Part shown: one piece after another, positions 1,519 through 57,171 of the stretch
How positions within the stretch are numbered: the stretch's first letter is position 1
Layout: each line of letters opens with the position of its first letter
Sequence record: OP114734.1
Length of the DNA stretch: 64,000 bases
Reading direction: 5' to 3' (one strand)
Source of the DNA: Escherichia phage vB_ESM-pEJ01
The notes under the pieces: model-generated
Seen by the model: only the letters and a program-made list of their open reading frames with translations
Told to the model about the DNA's origin: nothing
Database searches by the model: none
Made by a program: the position numbers and the translations under genes

Positions 1519-1557
1519 GGGAGACTCCCATTATAGAGAATCTCCCTTGTATGTCAA
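1519..1557 (-). promoter_or_regulatory. sigma70-type early promoter cassette (-35 TTGACA, inverted repeat gggaga/tctccc over -10 region)
   Basis: rc of tgtcaa at 1552-1557; inverted repeat 1519-1546; followed by SD and ATG of downstream gene. Confidence 0.4.
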
Positions 1558-2117
1558 CTAAAATTTAAAGATGCAAACTCCCCGTGATGAATTTTTGCAT
1601 ATTCATCATATGCTCTAGCGGCTTCCTCCTGAGTAGCAAACGATCCTATGTATTTTCTGTATCCGTTTATCCTTATTTGTGCTTGCCACGGTCTTTTGCT
1701 AGATCCTTTGCGATGAGTAACACCATTATATATGCTCGTGCACCCGTCCATTTTCTTTTTATTGTACATGTTTTGTTGTTGTGTTGCCTCCCGTAAATTT
1801 GGTGGATTGTTGTTTTCTGGATTCCCGTCTATGTGGTCTATTACCTTAACCTGTGTTCCATATTCAAGAAACCAGACAATTCTATGTACAAGATATGTAG
1901 ATGTTCTCTTTTTAACCTTATTGTAAACATCTATTGCCAAATGACCGTAATTTAACTTTTTTGTTTTTACTTTATCACCGACTCGGTAGAAATATCCCTC
2001 TGGTAGACCATTAAAAGACGGACTATTTGTTTTGTGATATAGAACACCTTCCGTGTGTTCAAATCTGCGTTTTAATTCCTCTTGAATTTCAGTATTCCAA
2101 AATTTCGCACTTTTCAT
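1554..2117 (-). CDS. HNH homing endonuclease with C-terminal AP2 DNA-binding domain
   Basis: HNH motif LVHRIVWFLEYGTQVKVIDHIDGNPENNNPPNLREATQQQN; AP2-like YNGVTHRKGSSKRPWQAQIRINGYRKYIGSFATQEEAARAYDEYA; start codon directly abuts stop of topoisomerase gene. Confidence 0.8.
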   Translation of the reverse strand: MKSAKFWNTEIQEELKRRFEHTEGVLYHKTNSPSFNGLPEGYFYRVGDKVKTKKLNYGHLAIDVYNKVKKRTSTYLVHRIVWFLEYGTQVKVIDHIDGNPENNNPPNLREATQQQNMYNKKKMDGCTSIYNGVTHRKGSSKRPWQAQIRINGYRKYIGSFATQEEAARAYDEYAKIHHGEFASLNFS

Positions 2118-13534: not shown

Positions 13535-14311
13535 TTATTCTATGTCAACAAATTTCCAATTTGGAAAGTCTGGACTCATACAACGACGCCGAACGGTTCC
13601 GCGCTCGTTTCCTAGTACCTTAGATACTTCCGATACAGATTTATAAATCACACCATCAACAAATACAGCCTTTCGGTCTTTCCTGTTTTGGTTTTTGCTC
13701 TTTTCTCTTCTGGCTTCTACGTTATCCGAATCATTCCATTGTCTCTTTGCTGTCTCTCTGGAAGATATTGCCTTTTGTTCTTTAACAATATCTTTAACGA
13801 GTTGTTCTTGTCCTGTTATCTTCGCCCACACATTAACAGACTGGATAGCATTAGCCTCACTCATTCCCCAGCGTTTGCCGGATATATTCTTACGACGCAC
13901 GCGTAGAAATTCGTTAAAGACTTCTTCGCATTGGTGCATATAATCACGAAATCCATATTTCTTAGCCCATGCCTCTTTAATTGCATCAGACATATTTTCG
14001 GCAATACGTCTACGCATCCATGCATACTCCTTATTATTGCGACCGTGACTGGTCATGCACATCATACGCGAAGCCATAATAAGACCCACATGTTTAGGAT
14101 ACATTTTAGCTAAAAGTAGATGTGCTGTAAAGTGTTCCTCTGGAGTCAATGGAACGAGATTTTCGTGGTCATCGGTTCCACCCATACAACGTGGTTTAAC
14201 GTGATGGATCTCTACATATCCGGTCGGCTTCTCGCGGGTTCTTGCTCGTTCAATCAATTTTTTGTAATGTGCTTTGTAGTTCATGTGATCCTCCATATGA
14301 AAAAGGGGCAT
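13535..14311 (-). CDS. HNH homing endonuclease
   Basis: HNH motif GYVEIHHVKPRCMGGTDDHENLVPLTPEEH; basic C-terminal putative DNA-binding region; inserted between gene-40-position ORF and uvsX. Confidence 0.75.
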   Translation of the reverse strand: MPLFHMEDHMNYKAHYKKLIERARTREKPTGYVEIHHVKPRCMGGTDDHENLVPLTPEEHFTAHLLLAKMYPKHVGLIMASRMMCMTSHGRNNKEYAWMRRRIAENMSDAIKEAWAKKYGFRDYMHQCEEVFNEFLRVRRKNISGKRWGMSEANAIQSVNVWAKITGQEQLVKDIVKEQKAISSRETAKRQWNDSDNVEARREKSKNQNRKDRKAVFVDGVIYKSVSEVSKVLGNERGTVRRRCMSPDFPNWKFVDIE

Positions 14312-32658: not shown

Positions 32659-33207
32659 TTATTTTAAATTTTTTCGAATGTATTCAGACCATTCCTTCCC
32701 TGTCATTTCGGACCCGTTCTGGAAACTGAAATATTCATACGGCATCGAGTCAAGATAAAACAGGATCATACATCGCGCCATATAATACCAATCACGATTA
32801 AAGTAAACTACGTTATCACCAGTACCATCAACCCCTTTATCATAACCATCGCGGGTACGGGCGACCCATTGAATAGTATCATTTTTCTCGCGGATCGTAA
32901 CAGGTTCCCAATATCCAGCACATCCAGCATGACCACACGAACAAGTCAGGAAATATTGACCTTTTGCTTTGTTGTCATCCCATTCACGATGGATTGGTTC
33001 GATCTCGTGAAACAGTGCTAAGCAATCATGATTATGCAACACTGGCTTACCATCAATCAATGCATGGAATGTATACAAACGACCAGTAGACAAATAGCTA
33101 TCCTCACGCTCAACCAGTTCAATAGCAATCTTTTTAGCTCGTTCTTTGTGTCGTTGTGCTTTACGCTTACGGTTTAATGATTTCATATTCACCTCACACA
33201 TTATCAA
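32659..33207 (-). CDS. hypothetical protein (182 aa), Cys/His-rich
   Basis: ORF track; LTCSCGHAGCAGYW. Confidence 0.5.
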   Translation of the reverse strand: MIMCEVNMKSLNRKRKAQRHKERAKKIAIELVEREDSYLSTGRLYTFHALIDGKPVLHNHDCLALFHEIEPIHREWDDNKAKGQYFLTCSCGHAGCAGYWEPVTIREKNDTIQWVARTRDGYDKGVDGTGDNVVYFNRDWYYMARCMILFYLDSMPYEYFSFQNGSEMTGKEWSEYIRKNLK

Positions 33208-33614
33208 AGGTCGCGATATAGTACATTATGAAAATGAGAACTTGCATTACCAATATTGTAGATAATAAATTCTTCATCCGGCGCTTGCGCTACAAATTGA
33301 GTATGAGCAACCGCCACAACCTTAAAAATACGATCCGTGATCTTGTGTTTAATTTCGGCTCCTACTTCCATAGGAACATATTCATGTGTTTCTGTTTCAG
33401 TCGCAAAACAGCCATCTTCTTCATAAGCACGAACAAATCGATCGCAATCAGTACGCTTAACAAATTCAAGAGTATACAATTCTCGTGAATTGTCGGTATA
33501 GACTAATACAGAATTATTCTGATAGCGAATCACATACAGGTTATTATCATCGTCAATTACGCAAAAGCTACGGATTTGTGTTCCTTCGCCTTTACTCCAG
33601 CAGATATTAACCAC
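33204..33614 (-). CDS. hypothetical protein (136 aa)
   Basis: ORF track; overlaps 33557..33751 ORF, start uncertain. Confidence 0.45.
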   Translation of the reverse strand: MVNICWSKGEGTQIRSFCVIDDDNNLYVIRYQNNSVLVYTDNSRELYTLEFVKRTDCDRFVRAYEEDGCFATETETHEYVPMEVGAEIKHKITDRIFKVVAVAHTQFVAQAPDEEFIIYNIGNASSHFHNVLYRDL

Positions 33615-33751
33615 AGTTCCTCTAATAAAAAACTTTCCTTTAAATTAAAACTAGCCAATGTGCTAGCGTGCATTTTAACAACAACACCATCGCCAATTTC
33701 CAGTTTACGAAGTTTAACTTCTTTGCTCAGTACACAAAACATCATCATCAT
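33557..33751 (-). CDS. small hypothetical protein (64 aa)
   Basis: ATG run at 33740-33751 with GAGAGGA SD directly downstream of promoter 33781-33808; overlaps next ORF (possible frameshift or alternative start). Confidence 0.35.
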   Translation of the reverse strand: MMMMFCVLSKEVKLRKLEIGDGVVVKMHASTLASFNLKESFLLEELWLISAGVKAKEHKSVAFA

Positions 33752-37542: not shown

Positions 37543-38109
37543 TCAAGCGTTAAATGACTTTTGGATCTCTTTCAGTTCAGCTACTTTATCGGCGCTGAAT
37601 TTAGCGTAGGTATCATGTCGAATAATTTCACTTTCAAGAAAGGTTTCCAGCCGAGATCTATTTTCAATAAGGAACTCTTTCAGGTCTTCTGCGTTCTTGA
37701 TAAAGATTTTATTGTCGGTAATGTCATCTTCAATCGCAAAGGAGATAGAGCGAACTTTACCAAACAAGTTAATCAAATCTTCCAGTGATTCTTCTTTCTT
37801 AACTGGTTTCATTTCTTCAAACTGCTTTTTAGTGATGCGTTTAAAGTATTTGCGCTCGCTTGCGTCAATCATGATTGACGCGCCCTCATAATCATGAGTT
37901 TCTACCAAATATACTTTACCCATAACATTAACCGTAAGAACTTTAAAGCCCTTGTGAAGCACACCATACAGGAACGTGTTATGTTGTGGATAGCGTTTAA
38001 CAAATTCCTCTGCGGACTCAGCATTACGGAAAGTGTAATAACGACCTCGTTCAAAAACAGCATCATTTGAAGACTTAGCCGGATACAATTTATACGTTTT
38101 CTGTACCAT
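37543..38109 (-). CDS. modular paralog family member
   Basis: MVQKTYKLY...GFKVLTVNVMGKVYLVE...RKYFKRI; C-terminal LEDLINLFGKV module; start at ATG 38109. Confidence 0.55.
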   Translation of the reverse strand: MVQKTYKLYPAKSSNDAVFERGRYYTFRNAESAEEFVKRYPQHNTFLYGVLHKGFKVLTVNVMGKVYLVETHDYEGASIMIDASERKYFKRITKKQFEEMKPVKKEESLEDLINLFGKVRSISFAIEDDITDNKIFIKNAEDLKEFLIENRSRLETFLESEIIRHDTYAKFSADKVAELKEIQKSFNA

Positions 38110-39240: not shown

Positions 39241-39996
39241 TTATACCTCATTCAGTTCTATATCAAGTTCATTTTCAATAATATAGGCATTAACTGCCCG
39301 TGCCGCATCATCTTCTGTGTCAAATCTTCCTATATACACACCGCGAACTTTAGCACCGTAATTACCTTGTTTTGGTACTTTGTAAACGTATCTATGACGG
39401 GAACTTGCTGCTTTTTGGAGCTTCTTGCCATATTCAGACTTTGCATATTCTATATCATCAATCTCGTTTATACAAGACCTATCACCAAAATGTTTCAACG
39501 CTGCAAGATTATATGCATAAGCCGCACCGATCTCGGAGGGAAAATATCCTAAATGTATAGACTTCCCATCCAACATTATTGCACCAGTCCAATAACCTTT
39601 ATTCTTATTAAACGACACACCTTTATACTTCGAATATGTTTTGCATTTGGTCTTGCTCATATTCATATTATTTTGTTTGCTTGTCGTCTCTCTAAGGTTT
39701 TCAATGCGGCTATTATAACGATCTCGGTCTTTATGATCTATATACTTAGGACAATGACCATGAAACATATGATAGATAACACGGTGCATACGTTCGTATC
39801 GCTCGCCAGTCCATACAATACGATACCCATCGGGGGTATCACTTCCAGCTAATCCGTTTATAACACCTTTTCGGTGCGGGTGAATCTTCCACCTAAGAAA
39901 ACCATCATCATAATAAAACCGTGAATGATATAAATCATACAAACGTTTATCTTCTGGAGTCTTGTGTATAACCTCATATTTTAACATTGGTGACAT
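39241..39996 (-). CDS. HNH homing endonuclease with two AP2-type DNA-binding domains
   Basis: HNH HRVIYHMFHGHCPKYIDHKDRDRYNSRIENLRETTSKQN; AP2-like YKGVSFNKNKGYWTGAIM...AAYAYN and YGAKVRGVYIGRFDTEDDAARAVN. Confidence 0.8.
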   Translation of the reverse strand: MSPMLKYEVIHKTPEDKRLYDLYHSRFYYDDGFLRWKIHPHRKGVINGLAGSDTPDGYRIVWTGERYERMHRVIYHMFHGHCPKYIDHKDRDRYNSRIENLRETTSKQNNMNMSKTKCKTYSKYKGVSFNKNKGYWTGAIMLDGKSIHLGYFPSEIGAAYAYNLAALKHFGDRSCINEIDDIEYAKSEYGKKLQKAASSRHRYVYKVPKQGNYGAKVRGVYIGRFDTEDDAARAVNAYIIENELDIELNEV

Positions 39997-46038: not shown

Positions 46039-46260
46039 TTAGATGATCTCTGCTTCACCATTCAGGAAGAAAGACCATGTTTTGTTAGGATAGCGAAGCG
46101 CCCATGATTCAGCGGTTTTAACACCAGCTTCGAACAATTGACGGCTGGTTACTTTCGCCATACCATCTTCAATGTCAACGTTTTCAATAATCATCGGGTA
46201 CTTAGCGCCACGCATGAAACCGAAGCCAGCGGAAGATTTGATAATTTTAACAGTTGCCAT
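46039..46260 (-). CDS. hypothetical protein (about 73 aa)
   Basis: Track ORF 46039..46332; ATG at 46260 (MATVKIIK...) has AGGAGAATCAAAATG initiation region and promoter upstream. Confidence 0.5.
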   Translation of the reverse strand: MATVKIIKSSAGFGFMRGAKYPMIIENVDIEDGMAKVTSRQLFEAGVKTAESWALRYPNKTWSFFLNGEAEII

Positions 46261-53388: not shown

Positions 53389-53982
53389 TTAAACGTATTC
53401 AGCAACAACATTATGTTTAAAATTACCGCTCCTTTTTGGATTTGGATTTTTCAATCGACTATGTATTAAATTTTTGTTGTATCCGGTTGCTTTAGACGCT
53501 TCGCCAATACTTTGATAAACAACACCATTAACACGAATCGGACGAGACTTATTAAACAGTTTATTCAATCCGGCATCATATGCATGGTTTTGGTTTTCTT
53601 GCCTCGTTGCGATCTCAAGATTCCAAACACAATTACAAGATTTTACCCCACTTTTATGATTAATTTCAAGACCTTCACAATCACCTATAAAGTGTTCAGC
53701 AACTAGTCTATGAATATAGCGATATTTCTTACTTTCCCCATCATGCAAGCATACATTATAATAACCATCACCAGCGCGTTTAGGTCGGAGTAGTTTACCT
53801 TTAACACGTTTTATAGTAGGGAACTCACCAAATTGATTTCTCTGGATAAACGGAATCTCGCGGTCTAATGAACGGATTCGACCATAGTTAGACACTTGAT
53901 AAAAACTTTCATATCCTTTAATTGGCTTCCATATCTCAGGGATTTCTACACCATCAATAACAACAAGTTTAAATTCTTCCAT
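53389..53982 (-). CDS. HNH homing endonuclease (NUMOD4-like N-terminus plus HNH)
   Basis: IKGYESFYQVSNYGRIRS (NUMOD4-like); YIHRLVAEHFIG...INHKSGVKSCNCVWNLEIATRQENQNH (HNH). Confidence 0.75.
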   Translation of the reverse strand: MEEFKLVVIDGVEIPEIWKPIKGYESFYQVSNYGRIRSLDREIPFIQRNQFGEFPTIKRVKGKLLRPKRAGDGYYNVCLHDGESKKYRYIHRLVAEHFIGDCEGLEINHKSGVKSCNCVWNLEIATRQENQNHAYDAGLNKLFNKSRPIRVNGVVYQSIGEASKATGYNKNLIHSRLKNPNPKRSGNFKHNVVAEYV

Positions 53983-55133: not shown

Positions 55134-55708
55134 TTATTTTGGATCTGGGAAATTCAATAGAGCATATTCTCCATAAAATTTCCTAGCTGCATTATCATAA
55201 GCGATTGCAGCTTCGATTTCTGTGTCATATTGTCCAAGAACATGTCTTTGTAGGTTGACCATTATACTAGCTCTCCATTTCTTACGCAAATCCTTCCTGT
55301 TACACTTACTAACACCCTTATACACACTAGAAAACTTTTAGACTTCTTCTTTCTATTATGTTGATTTTGCGCGTCGGTTGCCTCCATAAGATTTGGAGGA
55401 TTGTTATTAGCAGGATTACCGTCAATATGATCAATTAATCTAACTTGCGTCCCATGTTCTAGAAACCAAACAACCCTATGCACGAATAGATGAACTCTAG
55501 GAAGACCGTCATCTCTACTATGCCAAAATCTAAGATGACCATCTTTATTTGTTCTGACTTTAACTAAATCGCCGTGTTTATATCTACTCCCTAATGGTCG
55601 TCCTTTGATAGCTTTACTATCGACTCTATAATATAAGATACCCTCTATATGAGCATATCTAAGTTTTATCTCGTTTTGTAGGGATTCATCCCAATATTTA
55701 AAAGCCAT
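55134..55708 (-). pseudogene. HNH-AP2 homing endonuclease split by a frameshift at an A-run (or sequencing error)
   Basis: 55262..55708 carries HNH (LFVHRVVWFLEHGTQVRLIDHIDGNPANNNPPNL); AP2 domain (YKGVSKCNRKD...AAIAYDNAARKFYGEYA) continues in -1 frame as ORF 55134..55325; shift near aaaag at about 55318-55326. Confidence 0.55.
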
Positions 55709-55753
55709 TTTATAATCCTCACAAAGCCAGCGATTAAGCTGGCTTTATTTTAG

Positions 55754-56143
55754 TTATACCGGGTCTGGATATACCTTTTTATCGAGTTCCATATGCGGTC
55801 CGTCTTTAAAAGTAACCCAATCAACACCGCAGATAACAGGAACACCCAATTCTCGACCAGCTTGTTTAAATGCATCAGCGATCATGCGGTAATATTTCAT
55901 GTTCCATGTATCCTTATCTTTCGGATACGCTACAACGTCAACCGCGAAACCGTGAAGATGACGAGATTTCATAGTCTTAGATTTACCTTCCGCAACATAT
56001 TTCTTTTGCGTTTCTAGACTACGCACACCTTCCGTAATACCAAAATCGACCGGAGTCAGTTCTAATGCACGATGAACGACTTTTACCAGGTCTGGATGTA
56101 CACCAACAAGCCGATCTTTGCTTCTTTGAGATAATTTAAACAT
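55754..56143 (-). CDS. peptidase M15-like cell-wall hydrolase (candidate endolysin)
   Basis: Zn-binding signature SRHLHGFAVDV and later GPHMELD; 129 aa, no signal peptide. Confidence 0.5.
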   Translation of the reverse strand: MFKLSQRSKDRLVGVHPDLVKVVHRALELTPVDFGITEGVRSLETQKKYVAEGKSKTMKSRHLHGFAVDVVAYPKDKDTWNMKYYRMIADAFKQAGRELGVPVICGVDWVTFKDGPHMELDKKVYPDPV

Positions 56144-56947: not shown

Positions 56948-57171
56948 AGAAAGCCCTCCAGTGAGCTAATTTAGTGCGGGTAGTACATTACCCTACCCGT
57001 ATTGTTAATCATCGCAGAGCTTCTTCTAGCGCGATCCAAAACCATCCACAAACAACGCCCATACAGACAGCTACAAGAAGATTCATTCTCTCTTTAGGGA
57101 TCATTGCAATCATAACAACAACCATACAGAAAGCCACATTACCATTGAAGTTAACATTTGTTCAACCATTA

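Follow-up and report, generated by a model that had tools for sequence, protein, structure and literature searches.

Organization of the endonuclease locus

The stretch of DNA analyzed here (the window) comprises 64,000 nucleotides of the T4-like Escherichia phage vB_ESM-pEJ01 (OP114734.1) and is 96–98% identical to Krischvirus phages (RB49, JSE, GEC-3S, and others). On its minus strand lie two ORFs in different frames, one at 55708..55262 with an HNH_3 domain and one at 55325..55134 with an AP2 domain. The sequence-only reading had taken these ORFs as the two parts of a frameshifted HNH-AP2 homing endonuclease gene that meet at the A-run of tctaaaag. Its coordinates agree exactly with the ORF list, the sequence places the run at 55336–55339, and the identity of the gene is backed by Pfam, profile matches, and orthologue alignment. 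The features of the locus, together with an intact paralogue elsewhere in the window, are as follows.

55262..55708, minus strand: truncated HNH ORF, 148 aa (ORF list, Pfam, alignment to relatives)
55361..55486, minus strand: HNH_3 domain, I-HmuI-like His-Me finger (Pfam PF13392, E = 2e-10)
55427–55432 and 55364–55366, minus strand: catalytic-motif residues D93-H94 and N115, respectively (alignment to I-HmuI, 1U3E)
55385..55387, minus strand: codon 108, ATG (Met) versus AGG (Arg) in relatives (alignment)
55336..55339, minus strand: A4 run, site of the 1-nt deletion; A5 in relatives (alignment)
55134..55337, minus strand: rest of the gene, read in the −1 frame and covering the linker and AP2 domain (sequence, ORF list, Pfam)
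55134..55325, minus strand: AP2 ORF, 63 aa, GTG start (ORF list)
55134..55149, minus strand: right-hand recombination junction (identity to the native endolysin 3′ end)
55716..55746, no strand assigned: terminator-like hairpin (55723–55746) and GAGGA (55716–55720) (sequence; annotation in relatives)
55754..55834, minus strand: divergent version in place of the native last 27 endolysin codons (comparison of carriers versus non-carriers)
1554..2117, minus strand: intact paralogue, 187 aa, HNH_3 and AP2, downstream of the topoisomerase large-subunit gene (ORF list, Pfam)

The 148-residue product of the first ORF matches UYE95401.1 of vB_ESM-pEJ01 in full, a protein that the phage record labels hypothetical; three other proteins of the window match UYE95299.1, UYE95352.1, and UYE95399.1 exactly. 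Residues 1–123 are those of the native protein except for an Arg-to-Met substitution at position 108 (R108M), and the final 25 residues form an out-of-frame tail. The Pfam HNH_3 match on this ORF covers residues 75–116 and exceeds the gathering score, and a profile of the family matches the HNH enzyme I-HmuI with E = 4.6e-10. In the alignment with I-HmuI (1U3E), D93, H94, N106, R108, and N115 pair with D74, H75, N87, R89, and N96. The HNH nuclease motif is present, although its invariant Arg108 is Met in the window.

A C-terminal AP2 DNA-binding domain is present as well. The Pfam AP2 match spans about 55170–55322 and is under the gathering score (E = 3.4e-6; 27.7 bits against 33.3 bits), and the family profile finds solved plant AP2/ERF domains with a best E of 3.9e-23. 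The two domains do not share one polypeptide in this phage; the AP2 domain follows in the −1 frame after the 1-nt deletion. Upstream of the gene, GAGGA sits 7 nt ahead of the endonuclease ATG at 55708. This motif and the hairpin, which serve as its expression signals, are the same as in relatives, with a terminator annotated at the equivalent of 55723–55746 in G2248, G5211, and TB34.

The paralogue at 1554..2117 has the contiguous architecture that the sequence-only reading had described, with one 187-aa protein carrying both HNH_3 and AP2 by Pfam. It shares 45% identity with the repaired protein of 55134..55708. By motif reading, three more endonuclease-like ORFs, all on the minus strand, were recognized in the window: a 258-aa homing-endonuclease-like HNH protein at 13535..14311, which is absent there in JSE; a third HNH-AP2 protein of 251 aa at 39241..39996, between nrdC and dam, which is present in KMB43 and GEC-3S but not in JSE; and a 197-aa I-HmuI-like HNH protein at 53389..53982, where JSE has a different endonuclease gene. 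With these three, the window holds at least five such genes.

An intact gene in Krischvirus relatives

Comparison with relatives, which the sequence-only reading had proposed as a check, showed one uninterrupted ORF of 576 nt and 191 aa in 12 of 12 phages. The gene is found between the endolysin gene and vs.8 in 13 of 58 Krischvirus records and is missing at this locus from about 45, in which only the flanks match. The 13 records represent 12 distinct phages (JSE, G2248, TB34, SAP, G5211, Whisky, JK32, KMB43, FL04, phiS, PTE-Eco09, and OZ035808), each with a single 576-nt CDS. The JSE copy (EpJSE_00105; ACL78054.1) and those of its 11 relatives are the same gene as that of the window, at the same locus and in the same flanking cassette. 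Copies of the JSE type have A5, Arg108, and an intact 191-aa ORF, whereas the window copy has A4 and Met108.

The 575 nt of the window gene are 99.0–99.7% identical to the intact genes, and the pair of ORFs is therefore no chance juxtaposition. All four relatives in a detailed alignment read AAAAA where the window reads AAAA, and adding back one A restores the 191-aa protein. Otherwise the window gene departs from the consensus only by G323T, a change of Arg108 to Met that is private to the window.

The same picture emerges from the protein collection, in which two intact 191-aa forms are represented by 119 and 43 contigs and the 148-aa form by one, the pEJ01 genome itself. Exact patterns for the junction with four, five, or six A gave zero matches of any kind in IMG/VR, JGI metagenome contigs, and GTDB genome contigs, and these scans yielded no allele frequencies. 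The distant homologues are all contiguous HNH-AP2 proteins, as are the 12 of 12 orthologues.

The cassette at the 3′ end of the endolysin gene

The gene shows presence/absence polymorphism at a fixed locus together with altered flanking sequence, a pattern typical of a mobile free-standing homing endonuclease gene. Genomes without the insert have an endolysin gene that terminates in ...HLQLPHSKYPDPK*, with a terminator and vs.8 directly behind it. In carriers, it ends in ...HMELDKKVYPDPV*, strongly diverged at the nucleotide level, and is followed by the hairpin, the GAGGA ribosome-binding site, and the endonuclease gene. This divergence covers the final 27 codons of the endolysin gene and is confined to carriers of the endonuclease gene. 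At the other end of the insert, CCCAGATCCAAAATAA (PDPK*), with which the endonuclease gene closes, is identical to the native endolysin 3′ end of insert-free phages; the displaced native tail supplies the endonuclease gene with its terminal five codons and its stop.

By analogy with the T4 seg and mob genes (PMC2993671), the probable target of the enzyme lies in or close to the endolysin 3′ end of insert-free genomes. The divergent patch is probably a donor-derived flank that removes the cleavage site, and this protected form of the endolysin end would shield carriers from cleavage. The closest of the distant homologues (P0002; 51% identity) was considered as a clue to the donor of the cassette and set aside, as it adjoins gene 47, a different locus.

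Selection and damage

The intact gene is maintained by purifying selection. Variable sites among the 12 intact copies comprise eight synonymous and two non-synonymous changes, with an omega of about 0.06 (P = 8e-5 versus neutrality). What keeps the intact gene under selection is presumably homing.

Both private changes in the window are predicted to be damaging. No other homopolymer in the gene is as long as the A5 run, which is thus the likeliest place for a deletion by replication slippage. Arg108 is part of the N-L-R of the HNH motif, and its counterpart in I-HmuI, Arg89, stands two residues past the structural Asn87. An Arg occupies this position in 15 of 15 other homologues aligned, down to 28% identity, as well as in I-HmuI; the 15 include P0022, an allele of the same gene from a public assembly that has a 28-aa in-frame deletion within the AP2 domain. 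The only exception besides the window is P0023, another public-assembly allele of the same gene, in which NLREAT has become NLSEET (R108S and A110E).

The Ser of P0023 and the Met of the window indicate that Arg108 has been altered in two separate lineages, and the existence of the damaged alleles P0022 and P0023 shows that decay of this endonuclease gene is ongoing in nature. It is conceivable, but improbable, that the two lineages with a changed Arg108 reflect selection to attenuate a costly nuclease rather than random decay. The window copy itself combines an ORF that is broken relative to orthologues under purifying selection with the R108M substitution, the pattern of a recently decayed pseudogene.

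Origin of the frameshift

A single-nucleotide deletion in a homopolymer is a classic type of sequencing error, and the AAAA allele is present in one record only. The phage could then truly have AAAAA and an intact 191-aa gene, the missing A being an error of sequencing or assembly. Two further −1 homopolymer differences private to the window, both intergenic, at 46260 and 51379, could be of the same kind. However, the pEJ01 genome (OP114734; 166,422 bp) was assembled with SPAdes from Illumina HiSeq X-10 reads (PMC11767321), and consensus errors in 5-base runs are rare with this combination. The private G-to-T substitution in the same gene, moreover, is not a homopolymer artefact.

The whole 64 kb was screened for frameshifts against JSE, KMB43, and GEC-3S. 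No frameshift was seen in this comparison in genes of replication, recombination, nucleotide metabolism, or structure, and no essential gene is frameshifted across the 64 kb, which again speaks against an error-prone sequence. The few net frameshifting indels relative to all three references are those at 46260, 51379, 57135, the endonuclease gene, and about 33627. That at 57135 is a 2-nt insertion (CA, not in a homopolymer) within the minus-strand ORF 57009..57137; it removes the first ~10 codons of a small hydrophobic ORF of 52 aa and leaves a 42-aa ORF with a GTG start. A difference in a C-terminal T-run at 37559 proved to be specific to JSE rather than to the window. Among the references, the endonuclease VII gene of KMB43 (OR525698.1, 39163..39435) is annotated at 273 nt, versus 474 nt in JSE and GEC-3S, and may have a frameshift or truncation of its own.

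The only other homopolymer frameshift within a gene lies in a conserved hypothetical gene at 33204..33751 on the minus strand, which encodes 177–181 aa in most Krischvirus phages and is split in the window into ORFs of 64 and 136 aa by a T7-to-T6 change at about 33627–33632. This frameshift seemed private to the window and suggested an error-prone assembly; that idea was dropped because MIZ2, MIZ3, and MIZ6 carry the same split, with two ORFs annotated over the same span and an identical 136-aa product. In phiS, an allele that is 1 nt shorter is likewise annotated as two ORFs. The split looks like a recurrent homopolymer frameshift, by dispensability or on/off switching, and its recurrence in independent records marks it as real variation. 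The Illumina platform, the non-homopolymer substitution, and the recurrent split near 33627 together make an assembly error the less likely reading of the endonuclease gene; we regard it as unlikely but worth keeping in mind, and we infer that the deletion is real.

If the deletion is real, the two frames could still be joined during expression as a regulatory device, either by programmed −1 ribosomal frameshifting or by transcriptional slippage. The junction reads AAG UCU AAA AGU UUU CUA and contains no X XXY YYZ heptamer, leaving a single-tRNA slip on UUU as the only conceivable event. A −1 slip of tRNA-Phe on G-UUU-U (55331–55334), directly before CUA, would yield a protein with one change, K124S, and CUA is a rare codon in E. 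coli. A stimulatory RNA structure is lacking in the 106 nt downstream, where the minimum free energy is −13 kcal/mol, compared with −16 on average for shuffled sequences (z = +1.04), and 172 of 200 shuffles reach an equal or better fold. The runs of four A or T are too short for slippage, four-base runs of either being far too short for RNA polymerase to slip. Finally, the frameshift occurs in 0 of 12 relatives with otherwise identical flanks, so that nothing has evolved to serve a shift, and the 148-aa form stands on one contig against more than 160 with intact forms. With a singleton shift, no heptamer, and no downstream structure, we rejected programmed frameshifting, which we consider barely credible. 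A leaky allele, in which spontaneous slipping of tRNA-Phe on G-UUU-U before CUA would give some full-length K124S protein, is conceivable from the sequence and improbable; if it were so, the phage would make trace amounts of endonuclease.

The gene could also now work as two proteins, with an HNH nuclease and an AP2 DNA-binding protein each acting on its own. Both ORFs are still open, and at the point where the first one stops, the sequence ATAATG (about 55259–55264) also contains an in-frame ATG of the second, which could allow re-initiation. Re-initiation at this ATG, however, would yield only the last 42 residues, without the first AP2 strands (YKGVS...W), and no Shine-Dalgarno sequence precedes GTG 55325 of the AP2 ORF. 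Independent translation of this ORF is therefore unlikely, judging from its start region. The nuclease part, in turn, bears R108M. The split architecture was seen in none of the homologues examined, and the 63-aa product of the ORF as called here is not among the entries of the protein collection. We consider a division into two working proteins very improbable.

Probable recent inactivation of the endonuclease gene

The sequence-only reading had left three causes for the frameshift side by side: decay, slippage, and assembly error. Decay is now the best supported, slippage has been rejected, and error is judged unlikely. The locus is most likely an HNH-AP2 homing endonuclease gene that was recently inactivated in one phage and is now a pseudogene. 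The gene is of the free-standing type and occupies a Krischvirus locus between the endolysin gene and vs.8; its intact protein would cleave phage genomes that lack the insert, close to the endolysin 3′ end, and spread by double-strand-break repair. In this one phage, one A is missing from the A5 run that codes for a Lys-rich linker between the nuclease and AP2 domains. Translation then stops after 25 out-of-frame residues, detaching the AP2 domain from the nuclease, and the Arg-to-Met change strikes an invariant residue of the HNH motif in addition. The broken copy is, on these grounds, predicted to be non-functional. The window allele is known from a single record, which would also be compatible with a consensus error or with a minority or laboratory-passage variant.

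For annotation, the two ORFs belong together in the GenBank record as one frameshifted HNH-AP2 homing endonuclease pseudogene. The HNH-AP2 endonuclease is a known gene, and a dead copy of it is ordinary and involves no new mechanism. Beyond annotation it carries little weight. With 99.7% identity to copies that presumably work and continue to spread within the genus, the window copy illustrates cleanly, and at a very early point, how a homing endonuclease gene enters the decay phase of its life cycle. Homing experiments with Krischvirus phages could use the window allele as a natural negative control.

Comparison with known systems

The HNH-AP2 class of homing endonuclease genes is well established among T4-related phages, with JSE listed as having two and RB49 as having one (Petrov et al. 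2010, PMC2993671, Table 5). Such enzymes occur in cyanobacteria, ciliates, and phages according to the works cited there (Magnani et al. 2004; Wuitschick et al. 2004, cited in PMC2993671). The intact orthologues share the two-domain architecture of this class, whereas in the window copy the frameshift has uncoupled the domains. DNA binding and cleavage by this particular member of the family are predicted activities.

Each domain has structurally characterized counterparts. The His-Me finger aligns with that of I-HmuI from Bacillus phage SPO1 (PDB 1U3E), and the D-H...N-L-R...N pattern is kept in the window family; the resemblance in sequence is weak (E = 0.006 with the single sequence, 4.6e-10 with the profile). 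Unlike the window gene, I-HmuI is intron-encoded and has no AP2 domain. The profile of the C-terminal domain matches the plant AP2/ERF structures of WRI1, TEM1, and ERF, with E-values from 3.9e-23 to 1e-8.

Decay of homing endonucleases has precedents in the same phage group, where truncated endonuclease relics are known from the T4 nrdB intron and from an insert in gene 43 of JSE (PMC2993671). The window copy resembles these relics as a decayed homing endonuclease gene but differs from them in age. The T4 nrdB and JSE gene 43 relics are old truncations, whereas the window copy carries a very recent single-base lesion in a gene that is otherwise 99.7% identical to its intact counterparts.
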